Positions 3,777 through 56,074 are shown, counted from the first letter of the stretch. The stretch: 64,000 nt of DNA from an uncultured Myxococcales bacterium (GCA_903955385.1 CAJBNH010000158.1:11658-75657); one strand, 5' to 3'. A program made the numbers and translations. The notes: generated from the sequence alone by a model not told the origin.

Positions 3777-6677
3777 CTATTCCCCGTCCGCGCCGTCCTT
3801 GTCCGGGGCAGTGTCGGGCTTGGGCTTCTGCGTGTAGACGCAGGCGGGCGCGGGCGGTTGGGCCTTGCGGACCCACAACTCGATCTCTTGCGTCTTCCAG
3901 TGCTTCAGCGTGCGGTCGACGAAGACCTTGTCGCGCATGAAGTTATCGCGCTCGAAGGGGCGCTTGGCGACCGACTGCGGCGCGAAGTACGACATGGGTG
4001 CTGCCACGAAGAACTTCACGTGGTCGCTGCACACCTTGGTCCAGAACTCCTGCGGCGTGACCATGCCGGTGTTGAAGACCTTGGAGTTCGTGTCGACCTC
4101 GTTGCCCGCCAACCGACGTCCGGACAGCATCGCGATCAGCGGGGCGTAGTCGCTGGCCCCGGTAATCGTGTCTTGTTCCGTGGTGTTGGCGCGGACGTAG
4201 GCGGCCATCTCCTCTGCCGTCGACCACCAGCGCTTCTTGTTCCACAGGTAATGGTGCACGCCCGACTCGATGCTGCCTCGCAAGCGCACGCCCTGCCAGA
4301 ACAGCGCGTGGCTCAGCTCGTCGACCACGGCGGGACCCGGCGCCGGGCTCCACGGAAACTCGAGGCGCTCGCCCAAGCCCTTCGAGCTGGTCACTGCCTT
4401 GAATTCGCTGGGAAAGGCCTTGCGATTGGCGGCCATGTTGACGGGCACCCACGCCATCGTCAGCAGCACGGCCCCGACCGTCACCGCGACCCAGCCCCCA
4501 GTGGGCGCGAACGGGCGGGTCGGCTCCTGCCCAGCGGAAGTCGGCAGCGACTCGGCCAGCATCACGACCTTGACCAACCGCGCCACGGTGCCGATCCACG
4601 ATGCGGCCGCGATCGCCAGCGTCGGCATCAGCAGCGAGTAGTAGAAGTCGTAACGCTCCTTGAACTGTCCGAACTCCATGAGGAGCGCCAGCGTCACCGC
4701 CCAGATCAGCAGCGTGAAGCCACCGTCGGCCGGCTGGCGCCACCAAGCGCGCGGGTTCCACAACAGCTCCCAAGACGGCAGGGCAGCGGCGGTCCGGCGG
4801 GCGGCAGCGTCGGCAAGGGTGCGTACTTGCAGGACATGGTGCCGGGCGCGGTCGACGGCGATGGTCAGGACGACGCCCAACGGCGCGACAAGCGCCAGCC
4901 ACCAATGCGCGGCGTGGTAGTAGACGTTCTTGGTGAAGTCGCCGCTGTCTAGCAAGAGGAAGAAATTCGAGAGGATCGCAATGGGACCATCGCCGGGCGG
5001 CGTGAAGCCCGCAACCTTGGCCTTCTTGGCGAAGTGGTAGGTGTAGGCGCCCTGGATGTACGCGTCGCCCGCCAGCCACAGGAAGAACAGGTTCAGCGTG
5101 CCCCACACGGCCAGAAAGCCGAGGGTCAGGCGCACGCCGGGATGCCGCAGCAGGCGCCGCCACACGGGCTCACCCACCGTCGCGGCTGGGGGCAGCGGCA
5201 GGAAGGCCGCGAGCACGACCGTCGCCAGATAGCCGCCCACGCCGTAGAAGCCCGTCGAGGCTGCCGCACCCAACAGCAGACCACCCAACAGGAATCGCCG
5301 TGAGAACACCGCCCACAGGCCGGCCATCATCCACGCCGTCGTCAGGTTGATGCCGGTCAGGTTGGTCGAGGCCTGCAGCACCTCGCACGACGTCCAGTAC
5401 AGGGCCAGCGCCGCCAACCCCGGCCACACGCCGAGAAATCGCCTGGCCATGCGCCAGACGAACACGCCCGCAACCGTCGCAGCCGCGACCGACAGCCACT
5501 TGCCGACCAGGAAGCCCGAGCCGAGCACCAGGTACAACAGGGCCGGCACTGCGATGTGCAAGGGCGGGTGCGCGAAGAAGAAGTCGCGGTACGGCCACAG
5601 CCCTTCGGTCCAGGACCGGGCGGCATAGAAGTAGATGGCCTCGTCGGTGGTCGAGTAGCGAAGTCCGTTGGTCTTCAGAATCAGGAAAGCGGCAAGAAGC
5701 GCGGCGAACACAAGCACTTCGGCGTTTCTGGTGACGACGTGCAGCCCTCGCTCGCCCCACCGATGCAGCACCAACGCCAGGGCCACCGCGGCCAGTCCGG
5801 CCACTCCCGCGACGTGCAGCGCGACACCGGGTGCCGGATGCGACGCCACCAGCGGCCACGCGACCGGCAGCAGCAGCAGCGCCCCTGCCGCGCCCCATGC
5901 CAGCGACCGCGACAGCTCGCGCGAGGTCGCCAGCAGCACCAGCACTCCCGTCGCCAGTGCCGCGTGGGCCAGCGTCATCGTCGGACCGGCCAGCGCCGTC
6001 GTGACGAGCTTGCCTTGAGGTCCCACGGGTGCCAGCACGCCGGTCAGGGCGCCCCACACGGCCGGGGTCGAGCTGCCGACCCAACCGACCGGCAGGCAGG
6101 CGATCAGCCAAAGGCCAAACGTTCCGGCAGCAAAGACGGTGCGTGCTGACAGCGACGTGGGCGCGAGTCCCAGCGCAATTGCGCCAGCGGCAGAAATCGC
6201 TGCCAAGACAGCCGGTTGCATGCCGAATAGGGGTGTCTGCAGCGGCGCCGTCCACGTGTCCAGCCCCGACGTCGCGCCGCGCAGTCCAAGAGACAGCAGC
6301 GCAAGCGCCACCGACCCGACCAGCAGCGCATCGGCGAACTTGTCGTCCGGGCGTCGGGCAAGCCAGGTGCCTCCCACCGCAAGACCGATGGCGGCGAGCG
6401 TCGCAAGGGTCGTCAGCACCCGCACCGACGGGAAGACGGAGCCCGAGTCGGGCAGCGCGAGCGCCACCAACGCCAGCGCGGCCGCAGCCGCCAACGCCTG
6501 AAGCCAGCGCGGCGATACTGCGGCGGCAGGGGCAGGGACGTGGGGAGCGGGCTCTGCGGACCTGGCGTCGGCGGCAACTTCGGTTGCGGCAACCGGCAAC
6601 GCCGCCTGGTCCGAGTCGCGGGATTCCGCAGCAGGATGGGCTGCTTCGGGGACTCGGCTGCGGGTCTTTTTGGCCAT
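3777..6677 (-). CDS. GT-C fold membrane glycosyltransferase (PMT/ArnT-like, polyprenyl-phosphate-sugar dependent) with large C-terminal soluble domain
   Basis: 966 aa. More than 12 predicted TM helices after a low-complexity N-terminus. The TTDEAIYFYAARSW motif in the first loop resembles the DE motif of GT39/GT83 enzymes. ATG 6677 lies 3 nt after the meaB stop. Confidence 0.55.
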   Translation of the reverse strand: MAKKTRSRVPEAAHPAAESRDSDQAALPVAATEVAADARSAEPAPHVPAPAAAVSPRWLQALAAAAALALVALALPDSGSVFPSVRVLTTLATLAAIGLAVGGTWLARRPDDKFADALLVGSVALALLSLGLRGATSGLDTWTAPLQTPLFGMQPAVLAAISAAGAIALGLAPTSLSARTVFAAGTFGLWLIACLPVGWVGSSTPAVWGALTGVLAPVGPQGKLVTTALAGPTMTLAHAALATGVLVLLATSRELSRSLAWGAAGALLLLPVAWPLVASHPAPGVALHVAGVAGLAAVALALVLHRWGERGLHVVTRNAEVLVFAALLAAFLILKTNGLRYSTTDEAIYFYAARSWTEGLWPYRDFFFAHPPLHIAVPALLYLVLGSGFLVGKWLSVAAATVAGVFVWRMARRFLGVWPGLAALALYWTSCEVLQASTNLTGINLTTAWMMAGLWAVFSRRFLLGGLLLGAAASTGFYGVGGYLATVVLAAFLPLPPAATVGEPVWRRLLRHPGVRLTLGFLAVWGTLNLFFLWLAGDAYIQGAYTYHFAKKAKVAGFTPPGDGPIAILSNFFLLLDSGDFTKNVYYHAAHWWLALVAPLGVVLTIAVDRARHHVLQVRTLADAAARRTAAALPSWELLWNPRAWWRQPADGGFTLLIWAVTLALLMEFGQFKERYDFYYSLLMPTLAIAAASWIGTVARLVKVVMLAESLPTSAGQEPTRPFAPTGGWVAVTVGAVLLTMAWVPVNMAANRKAFPSEFKAVTSSKGLGERLEFPWSPAPGPAVVDELSHALFWQGVRLRGSIESGVHHYLWNKKRWWSTAEEMAAYVRANTTEQDTITGASDYAPLIAMLSGRRLAGNEVDTNSKVFNTGMVTPQEFWTKVCSDHVKFFVAAPMSYFAPQSVAKRPFERDNFMRDKVFVDRTLKHWKTQEIELWVRKAQPPAPACVYTQKPKPDTAPDKDGADGE

Positions 6678-6680
6678 GGG

Positions 6681-7655
6681 TCAGCTTCCGCGGGGTTCGG
6701 TGCCGGGCGGCCGCGCAATCGCCTGAAGCATCGCGCGGTCGGCGGCGGAGTAGGGGTCGCGCTTGCGGTCGGCGACTTCGGCGACGAGATCCCGGCCGTC
6801 GGCGGTGGCGGTCAGCCAGCGATGCGCCATGCGGGTACAGGTCTCGCGCACAAGGCCGGTGACGACGAAGGCGGCGCGGGCGCGTTCCCGCTCAGCGCGG
6901 CTGGGGCTGGAGGTCAGGAACTGGCCGTGGCGCAGGATTTCCTCGCCCAACAGGTCGATACCCTCACCCCGCGAGGCGATGGTGCGCACAATGGGCGGCA
7001 TCCACTCAGGCATCTCGGACAGCAGCATTTGCAAGCCGCGTAGATCACTGACCGTTCGGTCGGCGCCATCGGCATCGGCCTTGTTCACCACGAACACGTC
7101 GGCGATCTCGAGGATGCCCGCCTTGATCGCCTGAATGTCGTCGCCCATCCCCGGCACCATCACGACGACGGTGGTGTCGGCGGTGCGCACGATGTCGATC
7201 TCGTCCTGACCCACGCCCACAGTCTCGACCAGCACGACGTCGTAGCCCATCGCGTCCATCACGTGGACCATCTCACTGGTTGACCGCGACAGACCGCCCA
7301 GAGCGCCGCGGGTGGCGAGCGAGCGGATGAAGACGCCGGGGTCGGCTGCGTGCTCCATCATCCGGATGCGGTCGCCCAGGATGGCGCCGCCGGAGAAGGG
7401 GCTGGAAGGATCCACCGCCAGCACGCCGACTTTCAGACCTTGGCGGCGGTAGTGACCGACCAGCCGACTGCACAGCGTGGACTTGCCGGAGCCGGGGTTG
7501 CCGGTCAGACCGATGACGCGCGCGCGGCCGGTGTGGGGGTACAGCAGGCGCAGCACGTCGGTCGCGCCCGGCTCGCGGTCGTCGAGCATGCGCATCAGGC
7601 GGGCGCCCGCGCGAAGGTCTCCAGCGAGGATGGCAGCGGCAGCTTGCTCGCGCAT
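6681..7655 (-). CDS. meaB: G3E-family GTPase MeaB/ArgK (methylmalonyl-CoA mutase-associated metallochaperone)
   Basis: Walker A GLTGNPGSGKSTL and VDPSSPFSGGAILGDRIRM are MeaB signatures. The start overlaps the upstream gene's stop by 1 nt. Confidence 0.85.
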   Translation of the reverse strand: MREQAAAAILAGDLRAGARLMRMLDDREPGATDVLRLLYPHTGRARVIGLTGNPGSGKSTLCSRLVGHYRRQGLKVGVLAVDPSSPFSGGAILGDRIRMMEHAADPGVFIRSLATRGALGGLSRSTSEMVHVMDAMGYDVVLVETVGVGQDEIDIVRTADTTVVVMVPGMGDDIQAIKAGILEIADVFVVNKADADGADRTVSDLRGLQMLLSEMPEWMPPIVRTIASRGEGIDLLGEEILRHGQFLTSSPSRAERERARAAFVVTGLVRETCTRMAHRWLTATADGRDLVAEVADRKRDPYSAADRAMLQAIARPPGTEPRGS

Positions 7656-43822: not shown

Positions 43823-45901
43823 CTAGGTCGGAGCGGCCTCCGGGTCCAAATCTTGCGTTGCCGGCCTGGCGGGCGCTTCCAACGCGTCCAGCACGATCTC
43901 TGCGATGTCGCGGGTGCGGACGGCGTCGTACAAGTCCTTGTCCTTCAAGCCATCAGCCAGCATCGTCACGCAGAAGGGGCAGCCCGATGCGACCACCTGG
44001 GGTTGGGTCTCCATCGCCTGCTCGATGCGCAGGTGGTTGATCCGCTTGCCGATCTTCTCCTCCATGAACATTCTCGCGCCGCCGGCTCCGCAGCACATGC
44101 CCAGCTGTCGGGACCGCTCCATCTCGACCAACTCCAGCCCCGGAACGGCCTTGAGCGTCTCGCGCGGGGCGTCGTATTCGTCGTTGTGGCGGCCGAGGTA
44201 GCACGAGTCGTGGAAGACGACCTTCTGCGCGGTGGCATCGGTCTTGAAGTGCAGCTTGCCTGCCTTGATCAGCTCGGCGATCAGCTGCGTGTGGTGCACG
44301 ACCTCGTACTGGCCCCCCAACTGCGGGTACTCGTTCTTGATCGTGTTGTAGCAGTGCGGGCAAGCGGTGAAGACCTTCTTGACGTTGAGCTCGGCAAACG
44401 TCTCGATGTTGGCCTTGGCTTGGTCCTGGAACAGGTACTCGTGGCCCATGCGCCGTCCGGGGTCGCCGCAGCACTTCTCCTTCTTGCCCAAGACCGCAAA
44501 CGACACGCCGGCTTGCTTGAGGATGCGCGCGGTGGCGATCGAGATGGTCTTGGCGCGGTCGTCGAACGATCCGGCACAGCCGACGAAGAACAGCCACTCG
44601 GCCTCGGGGTTGTCGGCTAGCGTCGGGATGCCCTCGTCCTTGGCCCACTCGCCGCGCTTGCCGGACGCCAGGCCCCACGGATTCGACTTGGATTCCAGGT
44701 TCTTCAGCGTCGTGCCGAGCTCCTTGGGGAACTCGTTGCGCGTCATCATCATGTGCCGACGGATGCCGACGATCTTGTCGATGTGCTCGATCATCACCGG
44801 GCACTGCTCGCTGCACGACCGGCAGGTGGTACACGCCCAGATCGCGTCGAGGTTCACCGCCTGGATCAGCGCCGGCAGGTCGCCGCCCTCGCCATCCTCG
44901 CCGCCCGCCGCGGCCAGAGGAGCCATCGGCTTGCCAGCCGCCTCGGCATACACGAAGTCGCGCGTGTCCAGGATGATCATCTTGGGGTTCAGGGGCTTGC
45001 CCGTCTGCCACGCCGGACAGTTGACCTCGCAGCGGCCGCACTCGGTGCAGGTGTACAGGTCCAGCACCTGCTTCCACGTCAGGTCGGAAGACTTCGCGAT
45101 GCCCAAGGGCTCCTCGGCCTCCAGCTTGGCCTCGATGTCGGGGACGAAGGGCAGGGCGCCCTTGGGCTCCAGGCGCGACAGGAACACGTTCGGCAGCGAC
45201 GTGATCACGTGGAAGTGCTTGGACAGGGGCAGCAGGTTCAGGAAGGTCAGGACCACGATCAGGTGGATCCAGTAGTTGACCTCGGCCCACAGCAGCAGCG
45301 TCTTGGCCTCGGCACCGCCCGCGGCAAACAGCCCTGCCAGCCAGCCGCCGATGGGGGCGTGCGCGACCTCTGCCAGCCGGGCCGGGTCGGTCTTGGCCAG
45401 ACCACCGAAGTGCAGACCGTCGTACAGAAAGTCGGTGACCATCAGCATCGCGATGAAGCCGAGGATCAGCAGGGCCTCGCCGCTGTAGGCGATGCGCTTG
45501 GGCCGCACCACCAGCCGCCGCCAGATGAAGCCCAGGATGGCGACCAGCACCACGGCCTCCGTGATGTCCTTCACGAAGTCGTAACCGGCTTGCAGCACAC
45601 CGGGCAGCGCGGCCTCGGGGGCATACGCCTGCACGAACAGCTGCAGCGTGCGCACGGCCAGGATCGAGAAGCCCCAGAACGTAAAGGCGTGCAGCAGGCC
45701 CGACGCCGGCTCCTTGAACATCTTCTTCTGGGCAATGCCGACGACCAGCAGCTTGCGCACGCGGGCGGCGACGAGGTCCCAGCGCGTCTCTGGCTTGGCC
45801 GCGCGCAAGACCTTCCATCGCAAGGCGATCGTGCGGGCGAACAGGCCCAGACCGACCAACAGCAGCACGGATGCGACGATCACGCGATAGTCAAAGCTCA
45901 T
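43823..45901 (-). CDS. Membrane-bound Fe-S oxidoreductase (NarI/HdrE-like heme b membrane domain fused to HdrD/GlpC-like CCG domains, EtfD-like)
   Basis: N-terminal ~5 TM helices. Two ferredoxin-type CxxCxxCxxxCP motifs (CTECGRCEVNCP, CTTCRSCSEQCP). Two Cys-rich CCG domains (KCCG, CCGAGG). Internal ATG 45901. Confidence 0.7.
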   Translation of the reverse strand: MSFDYRVIVASVLLLVGLGLFARTIALRWKVLRAAKPETRWDLVAARVRKLLVVGIAQKKMFKEPASGLLHAFTFWGFSILAVRTLQLFVQAYAPEAALPGVLQAGYDFVKDITEAVVLVAILGFIWRRLVVRPKRIAYSGEALLILGFIAMLMVTDFLYDGLHFGGLAKTDPARLAEVAHAPIGGWLAGLFAAGGAEAKTLLLWAEVNYWIHLIVVLTFLNLLPLSKHFHVITSLPNVFLSRLEPKGALPFVPDIEAKLEAEEPLGIAKSSDLTWKQVLDLYTCTECGRCEVNCPAWQTGKPLNPKMIILDTRDFVYAEAAGKPMAPLAAAGGEDGEGGDLPALIQAVNLDAIWACTTCRSCSEQCPVMIEHIDKIVGIRRHMMMTRNEFPKELGTTLKNLESKSNPWGLASGKRGEWAKDEGIPTLADNPEAEWLFFVGCAGSFDDRAKTISIATARILKQAGVSFAVLGKKEKCCGDPGRRMGHEYLFQDQAKANIETFAELNVKKVFTACPHCYNTIKNEYPQLGGQYEVVHHTQLIAELIKAGKLHFKTDATAQKVVFHDSCYLGRHNDEYDAPRETLKAVPGLELVEMERSRQLGMCCGAGGARMFMEEKIGKRINHLRIEQAMETQPQVVASGCPFCVTMLADGLKDKDLYDAVRTRDIAEIVLDALEAPARPATQDLDPEAAPT

Positions 45902-45950
45902 GGTCGCTCCCGGACGGAGGACACCCCGGTCGCAGGACCCCGAGCCCGCT

Positions 45951-46706
45951 TCAGGGGTGTTCGATTCGCGGACGACGGATGGCCTGCACGGCCCAAGTCG
46001 GCTCCCCCCGGAGCCCACAACGTCGTTCGCGCAAGGTCGGCGGCAGCCCCGCGCTGGGGTCCTGCAGCCTCGTGACTTCGAAGGCGGGCTGGCGCCGGAA
46101 TTCTTCCTCGGCCCAGTCGGCGTAGTCGGAGACGTCGGTCTTGAGCAGCAGCCGGCCGCCGTCGCGCAGCCAGCCCGCAGCATCGGCCACGAATTCGGGC
46201 GAGATCAGGCGCTTCTTGACGTGCCGCAGCTTCCACCAAGGGTCGGGGAAGAACACGAACAGCTCGTCCAGCGTCCCCGGCACCAGCACGCGGGGCAGCA
46301 TCTCGCGGGCGTCGACCAGCGCAAGCACGGCGTTCTCGACCCCGTGTTGCTGCAGCCACTCGTCGGCCTCTTCGCAGAACTTGCGGCGGACCTCGAAGCC
46401 CAGAAACCGCTCGTCGGGGTGCAGCGCGCAGTAGCCCGCCACGAACCGCCCCAACTGAAAGCCGATTTCGACCACCAGCCGTCGCTTGTCGGTCGGGTCG
46501 CAGTAGGCGCGAAGAAGGTCCTCGTCCTGCACCCGAAAGATCGGGTCGACGACGTAGCGGCCTTTCAGGGGCGAGGGGGTGCCGTGGGCGCGGCGCTTCT
46601 CAATCGAGCCGCCAATCAAGGCCTTGGCGCGCTGGCGCTGGGCGTCGGGCGGATCGGTGGCGAGGGCGTTTGGGGTGTCGAGAATCTGGAACTTGCGCAT
46701 CGCCAT
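45951..46706 (-). CDS. trmB: tRNA (guanine46-N7)-methyltransferase
   Basis: VEIGFQLG SAM-binding region and FFPDPWWKLRHVKKR signature. Start ambiguous among ATGs at 46721, 46706 and 46700. Confidence 0.8.
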   Translation of the reverse strand: MAMRKFQILDTPNALATDPPDAQRQRAKALIGGSIEKRRAHGTPSPLKGRYVVDPIFRVQDEDLLRAYCDPTDKRRLVVEIGFQLGRFVAGYCALHPDERFLGFEVRRKFCEEADEWLQQHGVENAVLALVDAREMLPRVLVPGTLDELFVFFPDPWWKLRHVKKRLISPEFVADAAGWLRDGGRLLLKTDVSDYADWAEEEFRRQPAFEVTRLQDPSAGLPPTLRERRCGLRGEPTWAVQAIRRPRIEHP

Positions 46707-46783
46707 GAGGCAGAGAAGCATAGCGCACTGCGTCACGGGCGACAACGCGCCGACCCGGGACCGCCCGCCCCGTGAGGAGCCGC

Positions 46784-48331
46784 ATGGCCGCGACCGAGAC
46801 CCCTCCGCCTCCCACCGCCGCCGACGTCAAGACGCCTGTGCGCACCGGCGTGATGGCGACGCTGCTGCTGGTGATGATCACCGTGTCGGCCAGCGTGGCG
46901 ATCTACAGCGCATGGCTGCTGATCCGCGGGGAGAAGGTGCCGATCGCGCTGGAGGCGTTGCCTGCGGACTGCGTCTGGGTGGTGCAGTCCGACCTGCCCG
47001 GCGAGCTCGCGGGGGCCTGGCGCGCGATGTCGCAACACCCTGCACTGCCTGACGAAATGGCCAAGGACGCGCGTGGTCTGCAAGAGCTGCTTCGCGATCT
47101 GGCGGCGGTGCCGGGGCTGGCACGCGGTGGCGCGTGGGCGGTGTGCGGTCTGCGGCAGGGCGCGGTGGCGGCGCTGCCCGACGCGGGCGGCGGCCTGCCG
47201 ATGGCGCGGGCGTGGTTCGACCGGCTGCGGGCGGCGCCGTGGCCCCGGATGCTGGCTGCCGCCGATGTGTCCAACCCCTTGCAGGGACTGCAGAGCGGGA
47301 CGTGGAGCCAGGTCGACGGTCGGGCCATCCTGCGCGACGACCAAGGGCGCAGTCGCGCGGCGGTCAGTCAGGAGCAGGGCGTGGTGCTGGTCGCCTGGAG
47401 CTATGGCGACGTCGAGGCGACGGCGGTGCTGGACGAGTCACGCGTGGCGGCGAGTCGCAACCCCTTGAAGGAAGACGAGGAGTTTCGGGCCGCCATCGAG
47501 CGGGCCGGGGGCGGTCAGCTGCACCTCTACATCGGCGGCGAGGCGGCGCGGGTGTTTGCCAGGCGCACGAACCTGGGCCACGGGGCGGGCGTACCGCCGT
47601 GGCAACCGGGGCTGCCGAGCTTGCGGTGGCTGGGGGTGGCGCTGCGGTCCGACGCGACCGGCGTGCGCATCCACGCGCACCTGGGCACGACCGAAAAGGG
47701 TGCAGCCTGGCTGAAGCAGACGTTCGACGTGACGGGCGTGCTGGACGCGGCGCCGTACGTCGATGCGCAGGCAACGGTGGTGGGCGTGGTGCGGCTGCCG
47801 CTGGCGACGTGGGCCGCGTGGGGCAGCCTGCCCGGGCAGCTGCCGACCGAGCTGTCCAAGGGCTTGACCGGCCAAGCGATCTGGCAAGAACTGCCGGCCG
47901 CGGGTCTGGGGAGCGAGGCAACGCCCACTGGTCTGGTGCTGCTGCAGGTTCGCGACGCGGCTGTGGTGCAGGGCTGGCTGGCGACTCGGCGCGACAACCC
48001 GCAACCCGCAGGAATGGTGGACGGATTTTTGGTCATCGGCACGGACCGCACGACCGTTGGCCGTGGCGAGGCGTTGGTGCGCAAGGCGCGCAAGCTGGAC
48101 GGTGTCCCCGAGCTGGGTCCCGACACCAAGCGGCTGCTCAGCGAGACGCAGGGGCTGCTGGCCAGACCCGGAGCCCAGATCGACGTCGGAAAGCTGCGCG
48201 GTTGGCGCGGTCCGCTGGAGGCCGAGTGGCTGTGGCTCGACACCGGTCTGATCGGCGAATTGCGCCTGCTGCCAGTTGCTTCCGACCCATCGCCGGGTCC
48301 GCTGGCCACCGGCGGACCCGGGCCGGGTTGA
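46784..48331 (+). CDS. Hypothetical membrane-anchored protein
   Basis: N-terminal TM (VMATLLLVMITVSASVAIYSAWLLI), ~480 aa Ala/Gly/Leu-rich soluble region. No motif recognised. An upstream GTG 46772 is also possible. Confidence 0.4.
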   Translation: MAATETPPPPTAADVKTPVRTGVMATLLLVMITVSASVAIYSAWLLIRGEKVPIALEALPADCVWVVQSDLPGELAGAWRAMSQHPALPDEMAKDARGLQELLRDLAAVPGLARGGAWAVCGLRQGAVAALPDAGGGLPMARAWFDRLRAAPWPRMLAAADVSNPLQGLQSGTWSQVDGRAILRDDQGRSRAAVSQEQGVVLVAWSYGDVEATAVLDESRVAASRNPLKEDEEFRAAIERAGGGQLHLYIGGEAARVFARRTNLGHGAGVPPWQPGLPSLRWLGVALRSDATGVRIHAHLGTTEKGAAWLKQTFDVTGVLDAAPYVDAQATVVGVVRLPLATWAAWGSLPGQLPTELSKGLTGQAIWQELPAAGLGSEATPTGLVLLQVRDAAVVQGWLATRRDNPQPAGMVDGFLVIGTDRTTVGRGEALVRKARKLDGVPELGPDTKRLLSETQGLLARPGAQIDVGKLRGWRGPLEAEWLWLDTGLIGELRLLPVASDPSPGPLATGGPGPG

Positions 48332-48401: not shown

Positions 48402-49274
48402 ATGTCCATGCTGACCCCGTACTACGGCCTGCTCGACCGCTGCGAGCCGTTCCTGATCGCCGGATCCGACATCGCCCCGCTGCTTGACCGCGAGCCGCTG
48501 GGCGTGCGCATCCCCGACCGCAACGTCTTTCACCCACAGCAGCGCAAGAACGCGGATTTCCTGACGATGTTGCGGCTGGTCGACCAGCTGACCTTTGGCC
48601 CGTTCGGCATGCAGATGCCGTCGTGGGTGTTCTACGACTGCGCGGTGATGCCGGGCGCCGTGTTTGGTCTGGGGATCCGTGCCGACAGGCTGGAGGACTG
48701 GGCCCGCGAGGCCATGCAAGTCCCCGCAACGTATGACGGTCTGGTGCCGGTGTCGCAGTTCATCGCCATCCCGATGCTGGCCGGGTTCGCCGGTGGCGCG
48801 CCGACGCCGCGGTCGTGGCTGCTCTACACGCTCGAGTCGCTCAACCTCGTGTCGCCCGGCATCGCCCCCGCCGGCGCCCTGCGCGCCACCATGGCCTTGG
48901 GGCTGCGGGTGTTTCCGATCGACGAGCTGCACGGCACCACGCAGTGGCGCTCGCCTCGACTGGTGCCGTACTCGGATCTGGGACCGCTGGAGCTCGTCAC
49001 CGCCTACACGCCGGCGCACTCGCTGCCGCGCACGCTCAGCTTTCGCCTGCGGATGGCCGATGCGTCGATCGAGCGACTGTTGGCCGCAGAGCCGCTGTCT
49101 GCACCCCACGCCAATCTGGTGCTGGAGGTCGATGACGTGGCCGCCTTGAAGGCCGTACAGCGGGACATCGAGGCCGGTTGCCGAATTCACGTGGCTGGTC
49201 ATCCGGTTGTGCGCGGTTCGTCCGTACGCGTGCCGTTGTTCCGCCAGCCGCCCGACGCCGCCCCTGCCGACTGA
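48402..49274 (+). CDS. Uncharacterised protein, paralog A of tandem pair
   Basis: Shares with paralog B the blocks LTFGPxGMxMPxWVFYDCAxxPGAxxGL, DYxGLVPVSxxxAIPM, TQWxS and TPAHS. About 290 aa. Confidence 0.5.
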   Translation: MSMLTPYYGLLDRCEPFLIAGSDIAPLLDREPLGVRIPDRNVFHPQQRKNADFLTMLRLVDQLTFGPFGMQMPSWVFYDCAVMPGAVFGLGIRADRLEDWAREAMQVPATYDGLVPVSQFIAIPMLAGFAGGAPTPRSWLLYTLESLNLVSPGIAPAGALRATMALGLRVFPIDELHGTTQWRSPRLVPYSDLGPLELVTAYTPAHSLPRTLSFRLRMADASIERLLAAEPLSAPHANLVLEVDDVAALKAVQRDIEAGCRIHVAGHPVVRGSSVRVPLFRQPPDAAPAD

Positions 49275-49308
49275 ACCCCGCTTCCCGCCCCCGCGCCGGA
49301 GCCCCGCC

Positions 49309-50166
49309 ATGCGCCTGCCCTTCGAGATCCGCAACCCTTCACTGCTCGACGAGCTCGTGCCGTACGTGGTGGCGACGCCCTTCAACCTGCCGCAGCTCAA
49401 CCTGAATCCGTTCGGCGTGCCCACGCTTCCAGAGCATGTGATCGACCCGCTGCGCCTCGACAGCGAGACGTTTCTGACGCTGCTGCAGCGCCTGGACGGC
49501 CTGACGTTTGGCCCGGAAGGGATGCCGATGCCGCGCTGGGTGTTCTACGACTGCGCCGAGCTGCCGGGGGCGATCTACGGCCTGGCCCGTCCTGCCCAGA
49601 CGCTGTGGCCGCGCGCCCGCGACCTGTTCCGCGTGCCGGATGACTATCAGGGCCTGGTGCCCGTCTCGATGTACGTCGCGATCCCGATGCCCAAGGCCGG
49701 GATGTGGTTCGGCCACAACCTGTCGTCGCTGGCGCCGGTGTTCGAGCAGGAACAGGTGACGGACCTGGACCTGCGCGGCCTGGGCAGCCTGACCAAGGGC
49801 CTGGCGCTCAAGGCGTTTCAAGTCCAGGAGTTCTGGGGCGCGACGCAGTGGCTGTCCAAGGCGCTGTACATCCACGTCAAGTTCGGTCCCTTGAACCTGT
49901 CGACCGCGTGGACGCCCGCACACTCCGAGTCCGAGACGCTGACCTACGGCTTTCGCGTGACCGACGAGGCCCTGCGCGCGTCGATGGGTGACCCGACGGT
50001 GACGCTTGCGCGGCCGGCGCCCGACTTCTGGCTGGACGGCCACGACCAGAAGGGGATGATCGCGTTGCAGGATCGCATCGAGGCCGGCGAGCGGTTCGTG
50101 ATTCCCGAGTCGCCACGCCCCGTTGCAGAGGGCGGCGTGCGCGTGCCGATCACACGGGTGGCGTGA
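49309..50166 (+). CDS. Uncharacterised protein, paralog B of tandem pair
   Basis: Collinear with paralog A over the full length (LTFGPEGMPMPRWVFYDCAELPGAIYGL ...). Confidence 0.5.
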   Translation: MRLPFEIRNPSLLDELVPYVVATPFNLPQLNLNPFGVPTLPEHVIDPLRLDSETFLTLLQRLDGLTFGPEGMPMPRWVFYDCAELPGAIYGLARPAQTLWPRARDLFRVPDDYQGLVPVSMYVAIPMPKAGMWFGHNLSSLAPVFEQEQVTDLDLRGLGSLTKGLALKAFQVQEFWGATQWLSKALYIHVKFGPLNLSTAWTPAHSESETLTYGFRVTDEALRASMGDPTVTLARPAPDFWLDGHDQKGMIALQDRIEAGERFVIPESPRPVAEGGVRVPITRVA

Positions 50167-50236: not shown

Positions 50237-50566
50237 ATGGCAGGCAAGAACCTCGTGACGATCACCGAAGCCAACTTCAAGGCAGAGGTCCTCGAGTCCA
50301 AGATCCCCGTATTCCTCGACTTCTGGGCCGCCTGGTGCGGTCCGTGTCGCGCCATCGCTCCCTTGGTCGAGCAGCTGAGCGACGAGTACGCCGGCCGCGT
50401 CAAGGTGGGCAAGGTCGACGTCGACACGAATCAAAGCCTTGCCGGCAACTACCAGATCAGCTCGATCCCCACGCTGATGGTCTTCAAGGACGGTCGCGTG
50501 GTCGAGCAGATCATGGGCGGTCGTCCCAAGCCCGCGCTGGCCGCCCTGATCGAAAAGCACCTGTAG
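50237..50566 (+). CDS. trxA: Thioredoxin
   Basis: WCGPC active site, 109 aa. RBS AAAGGAG. Confidence 0.9.
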   Translation: MAGKNLVTITEANFKAEVLESKIPVFLDFWAAWCGPCRAIAPLVEQLSDEYAGRVKVGKVDVDTNQSLAGNYQISSIPTLMVFKDGRVVEQIMGGRPKPALAALIEKHL

Positions 50567-50627
50567 ACGCGCCGCCCACGCCGGACGGTCGCCGTTCCCC
50601 TACATCATCCCCCTTGAGGCATCCTCG

Positions 50628-51269
50628 ATGAACCGCAAACTCGGTCTGGCTCTGCTGGGCATTCTGGTCGTCGCGACGCTCGTGTTCCTGGTCTGGGGCT
50701 TCCGGTCCGACAAGAAGGGCGACGACAACGGCGCTGCGGGTGCGGGAAAGGACGGGGCTCCCCAAGCGTCGGAAGCCAGCGGCAAGGCGTCTGTCACGGG
50801 CGCTGAGGAAGGCCTGCGCGGCGACGACCCGACGGCCAGGCCGGACCCCAACCTGCAATTGCCGGGCGCGCTGCCGACCTTGAACGTGCCGGCCGGCGTG
50901 CTGCCCCAGGCGCCGACGACGCCGCACGGCCAGCTGGAGCTTGAAGGCGACGTGCAGGAAGGCGATGCCGAAAAGGCCGTGCGGGCCATCTTCCCGGCCA
51001 TTCGCGACTGCTACGTCGAGCTGCGCAAGCGCGCCCCGCAAGCCCGCGGCCGCATGCTGATGACGTTCTCGGTCAAGCCCGCCGCCGACGCGGGACAGGC
51101 CAGCACCGGTGAATTGTTCTTGAAAGAGACGCAGTTCACCGATCCGACCTACCTGACCTGCGTGCGCACCGCCATCGACAGCACCAAGTTCCAGGTCCAG
51201 GGCAACGTCAACGGCAAGATCACCGTGCCGCTGTTCCTGTCGCCGCAGGATGCTGGCGAGAAGCCGTAG
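50628..51269 (+). CDS. Hypothetical secreted/membrane-anchored protein
   Basis: N-terminal TM (LGLALLGILVVATLVFLVWGF), Gly/Asp-rich linker, conserved-looking C-terminal ~100 aa. Confidence 0.4.
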   Translation: MNRKLGLALLGILVVATLVFLVWGFRSDKKGDDNGAAGAGKDGAPQASEASGKASVTGAEEGLRGDDPTARPDPNLQLPGALPTLNVPAGVLPQAPTTPHGQLELEGDVQEGDAEKAVRAIFPAIRDCYVELRKRAPQARGRMLMTFSVKPAADAGQASTGELFLKETQFTDPTYLTCVRTAIDSTKFQVQGNVNGKITVPLFLSPQDAGEKP

Positions 51270-51387
51270 GGTCGGGGGGCTCGCGTGAGCGGATCGGCGG
51301 GTCGGGCGACCGGCGAATGGGCCGCACGTCGCAGGTGAGGACCATCGCCTCGCGCCAATCGGCAATGACTCGCGCCCACGGCAGACC

Positions 51388-51428
51388 TTGACGCGCCTCC
51401 AACACGTACGTACGTTATGTACGTACGG
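51388..51428 (+). promoter_or_regulatory. Candidate promoter (-35 TTGACG) overlapping an ACGT-repeat palindrome (CACGTACGTACGTTATGTACGTACGG), the likely operator of the TA pair
   Basis: TTGACG at 51388-51393. The self-complementary ACGT repeat at 51403-51428 ends 10 nt before the antitoxin ATG. Confidence 0.35.
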
Positions 51429-51437
51429 AGGTGTGCG

Positions 51438-51662
51438 ATGACCGTTACGGCAACCGAGCTTCGCGGCAACCTGTACCGCATCCTCGATCAGATCCTCGAG
51501 ACCGGCGAACCGGTCGACATCGTGCGCGGCGGCCGGGTGATTCGCTTGGTCCCCGATCAGGTCCGCTTCCGCGCGGCCGACGTCAAGCCTCATCCCGAGT
51601 ATGTCGCGGGCGACCCCGACGACCTCATTCATCACGATTGGTCGGGCGAATGGACCCCGTAG
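51438..51662 (+). CDS. Type II antitoxin, Phd/YefM-like (VapB-type)
   Basis: 74 aa, ATELRGNLYRILDQILETGEPVDIVRGGRVIRLVP matches the Phd/YefM pattern. RBS GGAGGTG. Confidence 0.6.
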   Translation: MTVTATELRGNLYRILDQILETGEPVDIVRGGRVIRLVPDQVRFRAADVKPHPEYVAGDPDDLIHHDWSGEWTP

Positions 51663-52033
51663 TCCACCTCGACACGCACGTTGTGGCGTGGCTGTATCAG
51701 GGCGACCTCGAGCGCCTGCGCCCGGTGCTCCACCACATGGAAGGACGCCGTCTGGTGGTCGCGCCGATGGTGGTACTCGAGCTGCAGTACCTCTACGAGA
51801 TCAACAGGTTGCAGATTCCGGCGGCGGAGGTTGTCGAGTTTCTGGCGAATAGACACGGCCTGCGCACGTCGGTGCACCCCTTTGCCGACGTGGTCCGCGT
51901 GGCGACCGGCTTGACGTGGACGCGCGATCCGTTTGACCGCCTCATCGCCGCACAGGCTCTGGTGGAAGGGGCCCCCTTGTTGACCGCAGACCGCACCCTG
52001 CTTGCGAACTGTGCCGTTGCGCGGTGGACGTAG
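51650..52033 (+). CDS. PIN-domain toxin (VapC-type ribonuclease)
   Basis: VVHLDTHVVAWL with the first acidic residue, central E, and DPFDRLIAAQAL with the distal Asp. Overlaps the antitoxin 3' end by 13 nt. Confidence 0.65.
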   Translation: MDPVVHLDTHVVAWLYQGDLERLRPVLHHMEGRRLVVAPMVVLELQYLYEINRLQIPAAEVVEFLANRHGLRTSVHPFADVVRVATGLTWTRDPFDRLIAAQALVEGAPLLTADRTLLANCAVARWT

Positions 52034-52127
52034 AAGCGGCACACGACCCGGTTCAACTCGGGCGCGTTCCAGCGTATGCTCCGGCCCCCGCAGCACCCCA
52101 CGCGCTGCAGTCGACCCGGAGTGCGCC

Positions 52128-53285
<1,158 letters not shown>

Positions 53286-53303
53286 CGCAAGGACGGGTGA
53301 ATC

Positions 53304-54455
53304 ATGGACTTTTCGCTCAGTCCCCAAGAAGCGCGCATCGAAGCCGACGCCCGCGCATTTGCCCGCGAGGTGCTGGCGCCCCGTATCGCCGAGACCGATC
53401 TGGGGGCGTTTCCGTTCGAGAGCCTGCGCGAGGCCGGGCGCCGTGGCCTGCTGGGCGTGAAGATCCCCCAGCAGTACGGCGGGTTGGGCGCCTCGATGGT
53501 GGCGCACTGCTCGGTCATTCGCGAGCTGTCGTCGGTCTGCCCCTCGACCACCGTGGCCCTGGCCGTGTCGAACATGGTGGCGGACATGGTGCTGGCGTTC
53601 GGCTCGGAGGCACAGAAAGCCAGCTATCTCAAGCCGTTGTGCAGTGGTGATCTGGTCGTGGGCGCGTTTGCCCTGTCCGAAGCCGGCGCGGGGTCGGACG
53701 CGGCCTCGCTGCGCACCCGGGCCGTCAAGGCGAACCGAGGCGGCGTCGACGGTTACGTGCTGGACGGCAGCAAGATGTGGATCACCAGCGGCGATGTGGC
53801 CGGTCTGGTGCTGGTGATGGCCAAGACCGACCCGTCGGTGGGCGCGCGCGGCATCACGGCGTTTCTGGTCGACAAGGGCACGCCGGGCTTCGAGGTTGGG
53901 CGGCACGAAGAGAAGCTGGGCCTGCGCGGGTCGTCGACCGTGTCGCTATCGTTCACCGACCTGTTCGTGCCCGAGTCGCAGCGGTTGGGGCCCGAGGGGG
54001 CCGGCTTCTCGGTGGCGATGACGGCGCTGGACGGCGGTCGCTGCGGCATCGGCGCGCAGGCGCTGGGCATGGGCCGCTCGGCGCTGGAAGCCTGCGCAAA
54101 GCACGTCGAGCGGCGCAAGGCGGCCGACCGGGCGCAGGGCACCGAACAGCTGACCCAGTTCCGCATCGCCGACATGGCGGTCAAGCTCGAGGCGGCCTGG
54201 TGGATGGTCCTGCGCGCCGCCAGCCTGAAGGACGCGGGCAAGAAGATGTCGCGCGAGGCGGCCATGGCCAAGGTCATGGGCAGCGAGGCCGCGAACGATG
54301 TGTGCCGCATGGCGATGGAGCTGGCAGGGGCTGCCGGCCTGGACCGCACCTCGCCGATTGCCCGGGCTTTCCGCGACGTGCGCGTGAGCCGGATTTACGA
54401 GGGGACGAGCGAGGTGCAGCGGTTGGTGATCGCCCGCAGCCTCGTGCAGCCGTGA
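53304..54455 (+). CDS. Acyl-CoA dehydrogenase
   Basis: ACAD layout. C-terminal [15 protein letters not shown]. Confidence 0.8.
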
Positions 54456-54468
54456 CGTGAGGGGAACC

Positions 54469-54924
54469 ATGACGATGCAGGACAACGCAGAGAAGACCGC
54501 CCGTCGAGGTCGCGTGCTGGTGGGCAAGGTCGGGCTGGACGGCCACGACCGCGGCGCCAAGGTCGTCGCGCGCGCGCTGCGGGACGCCGGATTCGAGGTC
54601 ATCTACACGGGGCTGCATCAGACGCCCGAGATGCTGGTGTCGGCGGCAGTGCAGGAAGACGTCGACATCATTGGGATCTCGATCCTTTCCGGCGCCCACA
54701 ACACGCTGGTGCCGCGGGTGCTGCAGCTGCTGAGCGATCGCAACGCCTCGGACATCTCGGTGTTCGTGGGCGGCATCATCCCCGAGGCCGACATCGGTCC
54801 GCTGATGCAGAAGGGCGTGGCGGCGGTGTTCACGCCCGGTGCGACGCTGCAGTCGATCTCGGCGCAGGTGCGCGAGGTGCTGGAGAAGAAGGGCGTGACG
54901 CTTCTGGGCGCCACCGCCGGCTGA
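54469..54924 (+). CDS. Stand-alone cobalamin-binding domain protein (methylmalonyl/isobutyryl-CoA mutase small-subunit-like)
   Basis: [16 protein letters not shown] carries the DxHxxG B12-binding motif. About 150 aa Rossmann-like. The start is 14 nt after the ACAD stop. Confidence 0.75.
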
Positions 54925-54955
54925 CCCGACCGCGACCCGTGCCTGCGAGGAACCC

Positions 54956-56074
54956 ATGGATTTCGTTGCCGATGAAGCCCAACAGATGATCCGCGAGGCC
55001 GTTCGCGACTTCGCCGAGGGCGCGGTCCGTGCCTCAGCCGGCAAGTGGGACAGTCAGGCCGACCTGCCTGCCAGCGCCATGAAAGAGCTGGGCAATCTCG
55101 GTCTGTTCGGCATGGCGGCGCCAGAGCGTTTGGGTGGCATCGAGCTGGACGCGCAGTCCGTCACGGCGGCTTTGGAAGAGCTGGGCGCGGCTGAGGCCGG
55201 GCTTGCCCAACTGGTTGTCCAGCATGGGCTTTGTCTCGATCACGTGGTGCGGGCCGGCGGGCAGGATGCGGCAGCCAAGCGGCTGGCGTCGGGCAAGCAG
55301 CTGGGCTGTCACGCACACGGTGAGGACGCGGACGACCTGGACTCGGCCGAGGTGAAGACGCAGGCGACCCGCGACGGCGACGGCTGGCGGCTGACGGGAG
55401 AAAAGCCAGCGGTGATAGGGGCTTCACGAGCGTCGCTGGCGGTCGTGACGGCACAGGTCGCGGGCGAGGCCGGGCTGACGGCGTTTCTGGTGCCGCTGGA
55501 CCTGGCGGGTATCTCGCGCAAGCCAGTGGCCGACATGATGGGGCTGCGGACGGCGGGCGCCGCGACGATCCTTTTGCAGGACGCGCAGTTGGACGATGCC
55601 GCGCGGTTGGGTCCGGTCGGTGGTGCGGCGGTGGCGCTGGAGCCGGCGCTGGACACGGCGCGGCTGGGTACGGCGGCGGTGGCCTTGGGCGTGGCCCGTT
55701 CCGCGCTGCGAGAGGCCGGACGCTACAGCCAGGAGCGTCACCAATTCAACAAGCCGATCAGCGCGTTTCAGCCGATCCAGTGGATGATCGCCGATGCCGC
55801 GGTCGAGCTCGAGACGGCGCGGCTGCTGGTGGGACGCGCCGCCTGGCAGGTGTCGCAAGGCAAGCCGTCCGGCGCCGCCATCGCGATGGCCAAGACGCGC
55901 GCCTGCGACGTGGCGATGCGTATCGCCGACCGGGCGATTCAGGTGCTCGGCGGCTATGGCTTCACGACGGACTTTCCGGTCGAGCGGGCTTACCGCGACG
56001 CGGCCGTGCTGAAGCTGCTGCAAGGCTCGGGCGCTTGGCACCGGGTACGGATTGCCCGAAGTCTGGCCCGCTAA
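54956..56074 (+). CDS. Divergent acyl-CoA dehydrogenase-family protein (catalytic Glu motif not conserved)
   Basis: ACAD-like N-terminal and middle regions, but the C-terminus reads LQGSGAWHRVRIARSL in place of YEGTSEIQRLVIAR. Confidence 0.55.
   Translation: MDFVADEAQQMIREAVRDFAEGAVRASAGKWDSQADLPASAMKELGNLGLFGMAAPERLGGIELDAQSVTAALEELGAAEAGLAQLVVQHGLCLDHVVRAGGQDAAAKRLASGKQLGCHAHGEDADDLDSAEVKTQATRDGDGWRLTGEKPAVIGASRASLAVVTAQVAGEAGLTAFLVPLDLAGISRKPVADMMGLRTAGAATILLQDAQLDDAARLGPVGGAAVALEPALDTARLGTAAVALGVARSALREAGRYSQERHQFNKPISAFQPIQWMIADAAVELETARLLVGRAAWQVSQGKPSGAAIAMAKTRACDVAMRIADRAIQVLGGYGFTTDFPVERAYRDAAVLKLLQGSGAWHRVRIARSLAR

Follow-up and report, generated by a model that had tools for sequence, protein, structure and literature searches.

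A tandem pair of sequence-orphan paralogues with a predicted GNAT fold, putative subunits of one acyltransferase, in uncultured Myxococcota

A stretch of 64,000 nt from an uncultured Myxococcales bacterium (GCA_903955385.1 CAJBNH010000158.1:11658-75657), here named the window, with a G+C content of about 67%, carries two adjacent genes on the same strand, here named A and B, which encode paralogous proteins of similar size. The arrangement of the two genes is the following, with positions counted from the first nucleotide of the window.

Gene A, 48402..49274, plus strand: protein of 290 aa starting with MSMLTPYY; A-type subunit, a GNAT-fold paralogue by prediction, with degenerate active-site and P-loop positions
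A-B spacer, 49275..49308, plus strand: 34 nt, sequence read
Gene B, 49309..50166, plus strand: protein of 285 aa starting with MRLPFEIRN; B-type subunit, a predicted catalytic GNAT-fold protein

The A/B gene pair in the window and across species

The open reading frame (ORF) of gene A opens further upstream, at 48276, and a promoter-like or terminator-like site was looked for in the A-B spacer and none was found. A first-pass annotation of this DNA had described the two genes as paralogues collinear over their full length, and BLASTP bore this out by aligning A and B in a single collinear alignment of 284 columns with 38% identity (E 8e-52), a resemblance far beyond chance. The motif blocks quoted in that annotation, LTFGPxGMxMPxWVFYDC..PGA, GLVPVS...AIPM, TQWxS, TPAHS and a VRVP tail, are all present in both proteins. 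Kyte-Doolittle hydropathy, calculated over 19 residues, reaches maxima of only 1.54 in A and 1.10 in B, with the peak on an internal beta strand, so that, as had been proposed, no transmembrane segment or signal peptide is evident in either protein. Orthologues of B are 52-98% identical among the matches listed, and those of A 44-70%.

Whether orthologues always occur as tandem pairs, and what flanks them, had been put forward as a check. Homologous loci were collected by a scan of one genome per GTDB species, which gave 104 relatives, of which 79 loci were kept, all from metagenome-assembled genomes (MAGs); the species-level counts below refer to these loci. Pairing was scored by translating all loci and then searching the ORFs with a hidden Markov model (HMM) of the family. 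Wherever a locus has upstream DNA, and also in the window, the gene immediately before the B-type gene, on the same strand, gives an A-type match; this A gene has its full length in 76 of the 79 loci as well as in the window. The three exceptions are incomplete or damaged: L044 lies too near the contig end, in L075 the A gene is split, and in L087 a weak A remnant lies inside the ORF of B. No locus with only A or only B was seen among the loci examined. The distance from the stop of A to the start of B, estimated in 73 loci, is mostly between -17 and +34 nt, an operon-like spacing with frequent overlaps, and overlaps of A and B set by the gene caller measure 4-7 nt. Flanks are not conserved family-wide: besides A and B, clustering of the neighbouring ORFs revealed no other protein in more than 23 of the 79 loci.

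The two proteins also occur as natural fusions. At least eight full-length A-B fusions were found (P0121, P0384, P0122, P0123, P0386, P0124, P0387 and P0125), proteins of 543-637 aa in which an A-type half is followed by a B-type half, mirroring the gene order at the paired loci. Their mutual identity is only 37-48%, and this wide divergence argues against sequencing artefacts. Neither extra Pfam domains on P0234, P0269, P0325 and the long fusions, nor an effector or DNA-binding domain fused to family members, were found. Outside the window, the 305-aa homologue P0069 has a TonB_2 domain at residues 19-97, fused to a B-type protein of which the C-terminal three-quarters are present. It is encoded on only one contig, of 2.5 kb, and a chimera made by gene calling or assembly is its probable origin.

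Predicted fold and asymmetric loss of residues

At the level of sequence the family is indeed unrecognised, as had been annotated. Pfam and NCBIfam gave no match for A or B at E <= 1, and Pfam searches with 34 family members singly, at E <= 10, returned scattered noise only and no acetyltransferase family. PADLOC had no match for A or B, the family profile found nothing better than E 1.2 among all PDB sequences, and hhalign of the A or the B profile with E. coli RimI, whose sequence was checked against 5isv, gave a probability of 0.1%. When 1.84 billion cluster representatives (50% identity) were searched exhaustively with an HMM, only 501 proteins matched with E <= 1e-3, of which 174 had E <= 1e-30, and in a collection of 5.8 billion proteins each named homologue is a 'hypothetical protein' from a MAG. 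A toxin-antitoxin or anti-phage defence system was also considered and was rejected on the lack of a PADLOC match together with the nature of the partner gene, which is a full-length paralogue and not an antitoxin.

At the level of the fold, on the contrary, the description as unrecognised did not hold. AlphaFold2, run on a 34-sequence alignment, produced a model of B with a mean predicted local distance difference test (pLDDT) of 93.3 and a predicted template-modelling score (pTM) of 0.91. The secondary structure of this model follows the canonical GNAT element order with all elements present:

beta1, B residues 17-21
alpha1, B residues 50-67
alpha2, B residues 76-81
beta2, B residues 88-95
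beta3, B residues 116-126
beta4, B residues 132-140
alpha3, B residues 158-169
beta5, B residues 174-180
alpha4, B residues 185-192
beta6, B residues 195-202
beta7, B residues 210-216
Complete predicted GNAT core, B residues 17-216, 49357..49956, plus strand: from the AlphaFold2 element order and the Foldseek matches
Small C-terminal beta-alpha-beta-beta-beta domain, B residues 240-284, 50026..50160, plus strand: motif D..LQ..IEaGerf...P....VP, also in A

The model of B has extra parts in addition to the core: beta1 is followed by an insertion of about 30 residues and beta2 by a helix, and about 14 residues are inserted on the way from beta4 to the putative P-loop and alpha3; the C-terminal domain (residues 240-284) has no separate structural match.

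A Foldseek search of the PDB with the B model gave GNAT acetyltransferases for all of the top 50 matches (E 2e-5 to 2e-3, probability ~1.0), with template-modelling (TM) scores, normalised to the target, of 0.45-0.67 and sequence identities of 8-14%; for the nearest solved structures the TM scores are 0.55-0.67, with E 2e-5 to 1e-3 and 9-15% identity. The best match is 9mto (CBU0801, a RimI homologue; E 2.3e-5), and the others include DDE_3044 (2r7h), GCN5/PCAF, NatD, RimI, Naa50, Naa30, the tabtoxin-resistance protein and streptothricin acetyltransferases. The nearest structural neighbours of the model are protein N-terminal and lysine acetyltransferases, which is a weak pointer to the chemistry, since most GNAT structures in the PDB are of this sort. 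We conclude that the A/B family is a GNAT fold beyond the reach of sequence methods, as assigned from a confident predicted model. The first-pass annotation had regarded a confident profile match to a family such as GNAT as the routine outcome; a GNAT fold was found, by structure and with no profile match.

The likeness to the GNAT superfamily consists of the element order and the Foldseek matches, together with the G-x-G loop of B before alpha3, a candidate P-loop, and its conserved polar dyad at the centre of beta4. The family differs from its matches in length, as its proteins have about 285 aa vs about 150-170 aa (owing to the insertions and a C-terminal domain of 45-55 residues), and in that it appears to work as a fixed A/B pair.

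Residue frequencies were obtained from a joint alignment of 73 A/B pairs, in B numbering. Ten positions are common to A and B (D63, G68, M74, W77, P118, Q180, W181, H205 of TPAH, E258 and G260), while the following ones are conserved in B and replaced in A.

E70, alpha1-alpha2: 72/73 B sequences; F, V or L in A
G135, centre of beta4: 70/73 B sequences; L, V or T in A
H136, centre of beta4: 73/73 B sequences; Y in A
N137, centre of beta4: 73/73 B sequences; T or S in A
G159, G-x-G loop before alpha3: G in 66/73 and A in 7/73 B sequences; L, W or R in A
K163, start of alpha3: 73/73 B sequences; L in A
H189, alpha4: 73/73 B sequences; Y or F in A
Y213, beta7: 73/73 B sequences; F in A

The short segments of interest in the two genes are the following, all on the plus strand:

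alpha1-alpha2 segment of B, residues 65-82, LTFGPEGMPMPRWVFYDC, 49501..49554, plus strand: near-invariant; acceptor-site region in GNATs
beta4 of B, residues 133-140, WFGHNLSS, 49705..49728, plus strand: G135, H136 and N137 at the GNAT beta-bulge/oxyanion-hole position
G-x-G loop of B, residues 154-163, DLRGLGSLTK, 49768..49797, plus strand: at the N-terminus of alpha3; candidate motif-A P-loop, followed by K163
beta6-beta7 loop of B, residues 202-206, TPAHS, 49912..49926, plus strand: His205, invariant in A and B
alpha1-alpha2 copy in A, residues 63-80, LTFGPFGMQMPSWVFYDC, 48588..48641, plus strand: E70 of B replaced by F, V or L, and P73 of B variable
Degenerate beta4 of A, residues 139-146, WLLYTLES, 48816..48839, plus strand: G-H-N of B replaced by L/V/T, Y and T/S
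Degenerate P-loop of A, residues 155-164, APAGALRATM, 48864..48893, plus strand: L, W or R in place of the second Gly, and Leu in place of Lys

The glycine at position 157 is present in 62 of the 73 B sequences, and the loop reads x-L-x-G-L-G directly before the helix 158-169. The pLDDT of the alpha1-alpha2 segment is 75-83 when B is modelled alone and 83-90 for the equivalent stretch of the fusion model described below. The A type carries conserved motifs that are specific to it (CEP, DPQ, avMPGavf, nqv.PG.ap and QWRsp), showing that A is not decaying. B is the slower-evolving of the two in 71 of 72 comparisons, with a median identity to the window protein of 60% vs 50.5% for A.

The packing of the two halves was modelled on the fusion P0121. 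Its alignment was built without single A-type sequences, which MAFFT had put on the B half, and AlphaFold2 returned a model of 570 residues with a pLDDT of 93.5 and a pTM of 0.93, where only a linker of about 25 residues has low confidence. This pTM indicates that the relative position of the two halves is confidently fixed, and the model implies that A and B may pack in one fixed arrangement, as a single rigid body. The only full-length Foldseek matches of the P0121 model are tandem-GNAT proteins, 7qf6 (E 1.7e-4 over 525 columns) and 2wpx (E 1e-2), both with a global TM score of 0.16-0.27 and a root-mean-square deviation of 20-25 Å, values which suggest a domain arrangement unlike any solved tandem GNAT. 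MshD, NMT, FemX and Eis are all missing from the top 50 Foldseek matches of the fusion model.

Candidate functions of the pair

We consider it probable, with some reserve, that A and B form an obligate heteromeric GNAT acyltransferase in which B is catalytic and A is a pseudo-enzyme partner, by analogy with MshD or SidF. In this reading a single cytoplasmic enzyme would contain A and B as its subunits, each a diverged GNAT-fold domain, physically associated as a heterodimer. The G-x-G loop of B, a pyrophosphate-type loop ahead of alpha3, is predicted to bind an acyl-coenzyme A (acyl-CoA) donor, whose acyl group would be transferred to an amine acceptor; in GNATs the acyl-CoA lies in a V-shaped beta4/beta5 cleft. 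The Gly-His-Asn of B at the centre of beta4 would occupy the site of the GNAT oxyanion hole, which in some members also holds a catalytic His, and K163, H189 and Y213 are further invariant polar residues of the predicted catalytic subunit. A, which has lost all these active-site residues of B and keeps a conserved surface of its own, may pack against B and would probably supply part of the acceptor-binding site or stabilise B, as the inactive N-terminal domains do in MshD and SidF.

Known GNATs provide several precedents for this proposal. The motif-A P-loop has the consensus Q/R-x-x-G-x-G/A, stands N-terminal to alpha3 and binds the CoA pyrophosphate, and the centre of beta4 forms a beta-bulge and the oxyanion hole, where Rv1347c has its catalytic His (PMC4964394). 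The H136 of B resembles this His of Rv1347c, which is related to SidF, and the Naa50 loop R-R-L-G-I-G resembles the G-x-G loop of B together with its T-K at the N-terminus of alpha3. In MshD the C-terminal domain is the active one and the non-catalytic N-terminal GNAT domain helps to form its acceptor site, with the acceptor bound between the two; both domains keep the P-loop and bind acetyl-CoA (PMC4964394). The order of a non-catalytic and then a catalytic domain in MshD matches the A-then-B order and the A-B fusions; MshD differs in that it is one chain, while the two domains here are normally separate polypeptides, in that A has lost the P-loop while both MshD domains keep theirs, and in that it is not among the top Foldseek matches. 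In SidF the N-terminal GNAT-like domain is inactive and lacks the donor cleft, and the C-terminal GNAT domain is active (PMC11751504). The SidF/IucB-type N-hydroxyornithine transacylase (7qf6) and the clavulanate tandem-GNAT protein (2wpx) share with the fusion model their full-length Foldseek match and differ from it by another domain arrangement and by having no sequence relationship to it.

The first-pass annotation had suggested a heteromeric or paired-specificity system, and the two parts of this suggestion fared differently: strict A-then-B pairing, the fusions and the P0121 model strongly favour the heteromeric one, whereas the loss of the active-site polar residues of B in A makes paired specificity less likely. 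The latter idea would have both A and B as active GNAT enzymes with different donor or acceptor specificities, either as separate homodimers or as a heterodimer with two active sites, performing consecutive or alternative acylations. Indeed, A is under clear purifying selection with A-specific invariant motifs (CEP, DPQ and QWRsp), it has His205, Q180/W181 and M74/W77 in common with B, and active GNATs with atypical P-loops and without a beta-bulge are known (PMC4964394). However, each B-invariant polar residue at beta4, the P-loop and alpha4 has become hydrophobic or aromatic in A, which is also the faster-evolving protein, and the fixed gene order, the occasional fusion and the absence of any single-gene locus among those examined fit poorly with two independent enzymes, so that we regard two active enzymes as unlikely.

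Another explanation keeps the transferase fold and changes the donor. A two-GNAT-domain architecture is typical of Fem-type transferases, and A/B could be a GNAT-fold transferase that works without acyl-CoA, using aminoacyl-tRNA (as FemX or the L/F-transferase) or acyl-acyl carrier protein (as LuxI or FeeM) and holding the substrate between two GNAT-like domains. The insertion between beta4 and the P-loop, the lack of conservation at the first P-loop position and the presence of the LuxI-type synthase TofI (3p2h) among the weaker Foldseek matches are in line with such a donor, which nevertheless appears doubtful to us: all of the closest structural matches are N-acetyltransferases that depend on acetyl-CoA, the top 50 for either the B or the fusion model include no chain of FemX, MprF, L/F-transferase or NMT, and B keeps a Naa50-like G-x-G loop, with T-K after it, at the N-terminus of alpha3. 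It is also conceivable, and in our judgement very improbable, that A/B is a non-enzymatic ligand-sensing or scaffolding module of GNAT-like fold, for example a sensor of acyl-CoA comparable to the GNAT-like domain at the C-terminus of M. tuberculosis ICL2, whose chains 9obo and 6edw are among the Foldseek matches of the fusion model. The genomic context points to no substrate, which would suit a sensor; the His-Asn on beta4 with K163, H189 and Y213, absolutely conserved in 73 B sequences, look instead like a catalytic constellation, and the family members carry no fused effector or DNA-binding domain that could be found. Compared with a catalytic B and a non-catalytic A, each of these alternatives is in poorer agreement either with the pattern of lost residues or with the structural neighbours.

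A number of points nonetheless weigh against the heteromeric acyltransferase with a catalytic B and a non-catalytic A. The sequence-level link to any GNAT family is absent in Pfam, NCBIfam, the PDB profile search and hhalign, and the fold call comes from predicted models only; the A half of the fusion alignment held only about 10 sequences. The putative P-loop is set off from beta4 by the insertion of about 14 residues and shows no conserved Q/R at its first position, so that CoA binding by B is not assured. A keeps many strongly conserved residues (His205, TQW and MPxW) and could bind a ligand or be active. Finally, the genomic context does not point to any substrate. Siderophore or clavulanate genes were not found around the A/B loci, and high conservation without a biosynthetic-cluster context makes a conserved acceptor of the cell, be it a protein, a peptide or a metabolite, more likely than a role in secondary metabolism.

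Distribution, neighbouring genes and significance

Nearly all loci are labelled as Myxococcota, Myxococcales, Polyangiaceae, Kofleriaceae, Haliangium, Bradymonadales or 'Deltaproteobacteria', and the A/B family appears to be confined to uncultured Myxococcota. Seven loci (L016, L029, L032, L034, L045, L048 and L074) bear the odd titles 'Klebsiella pneumoniae', 'uncultured Enterobacteriaceae' or 'Phycisphaerales'. Their G+C content is 64-71% in six of the seven and 56.5% in the Klebsiella-titled L016, several of them carry the usual neighbours of the clade, and the HMM scores of L029 are identical to those of a marine-sediment contig; these labels are probably wrong, or the contigs mis-binned.

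The genes around the pair in the window are the following.

43823-46745, minus strand: membrane-anchored Fe-S/CCG-domain oxidoreductase (HdrD/GlpC-like) and TrmB-type methyltransferase (PF02390), divergent from A/B
46772-48331: 519-aa protein with a hydrophobic N-terminus, without Pfam or PADLOC match
50237-50566: thioredoxin
50628-51269: 213-aa orphan protein
51417-51662: Phd/YefM antitoxin (Pfam E 5.8e-6), overlapping the next gene
51638-52033: PIN/VapC toxin (E 9e-10)
52002-56074: successive acyl-CoA dehydrogenase genes that make up a cluster for acyl-CoA metabolism, about 2 kb downstream of A/B
52002-53285: acyl-CoA dehydrogenase, judged from the translation only
53304-54455 and 54956-56074: acyl-CoA dehydrogenases, confirmed by Pfam
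54457-54924: stand-alone B12-binding-domain protein (PF02310, E 7.5e-27) among the acyl-CoA dehydrogenase genes

The thioredoxin and the 213-aa orphan (window 50237-51269) follow the pair in 22 of the 79 loci, all of them in the better-matching half of the scan list (L005-L048, where B is >=65% identical), and their presence beside the pair is clade-level synteny and not a functional link. TrmB and the upstream 519-aa protein are likewise clade-limited, to the better-matching subset; the oxidoreductase/TrmB arrangement is kept only in closer relatives, and in 19 of the 79 loci a weak relative of the 519-aa protein (27-37% identity) is encoded upstream of the pair, at a distance between a few hundred bases and about 3 kb and sometimes on the strand opposite to it. 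Unrelated genes surround the pair in more distant loci, among them those for a sigma factor, aconitase and large secreted proteins, and in these loci the acyl-CoA dehydrogenase cluster has no link to the A/B pair. The contigs of the MAG loci L009 and L045 align to the window with 93-96% DNA identity on both sides of 51270-52047 and not across it, indicating that the toxin-antitoxin module lies in a strain-variable islet. In L001 a 287-aa Cys-rich protein (6190-7053), with a signal- or lipoprotein-like N-terminus, is encoded directly upstream of the A/B pair; it was considered as a third paralogue and rejected, being unrelated to the family despite its similar size.

In conclusion, A and B are a sequence-orphan branch of the well-known GNAT fold that is unusual in its strictly conserved organisation as a probable split heteromer; they do not represent a new type of system. 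Nothing established is overturned by this result, and the chemistry is most probably ordinary acyl transfer. The analysis provides a predicted fold and a testable mechanism for a family that is 'hypothetical' in every database and counts about 500 clusters at 50% identity, and it would offer a clean natural example of a split GNAT heteromer, with an active and a degenerate paralogue and rare fused forms, of a type of GNAT pair otherwise known mainly as single-chain tandem domains. Only tentatively, we may go further and imagine a lineage-specific two-subunit acyltransferase with novel domain packing, in which the pseudo-enzyme A would be the specificity subunit and the reaction would be an undescribed modification of a conserved cellular target, such as the acylation of protein N-termini or lysines, or that of a metabolite peculiar to the lineage. 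The strong conservation of the family across Myxococcota MAGs, with a median identity of 60% to the window protein for B, suggests an acylation of physiological importance that is specific to the lineage.

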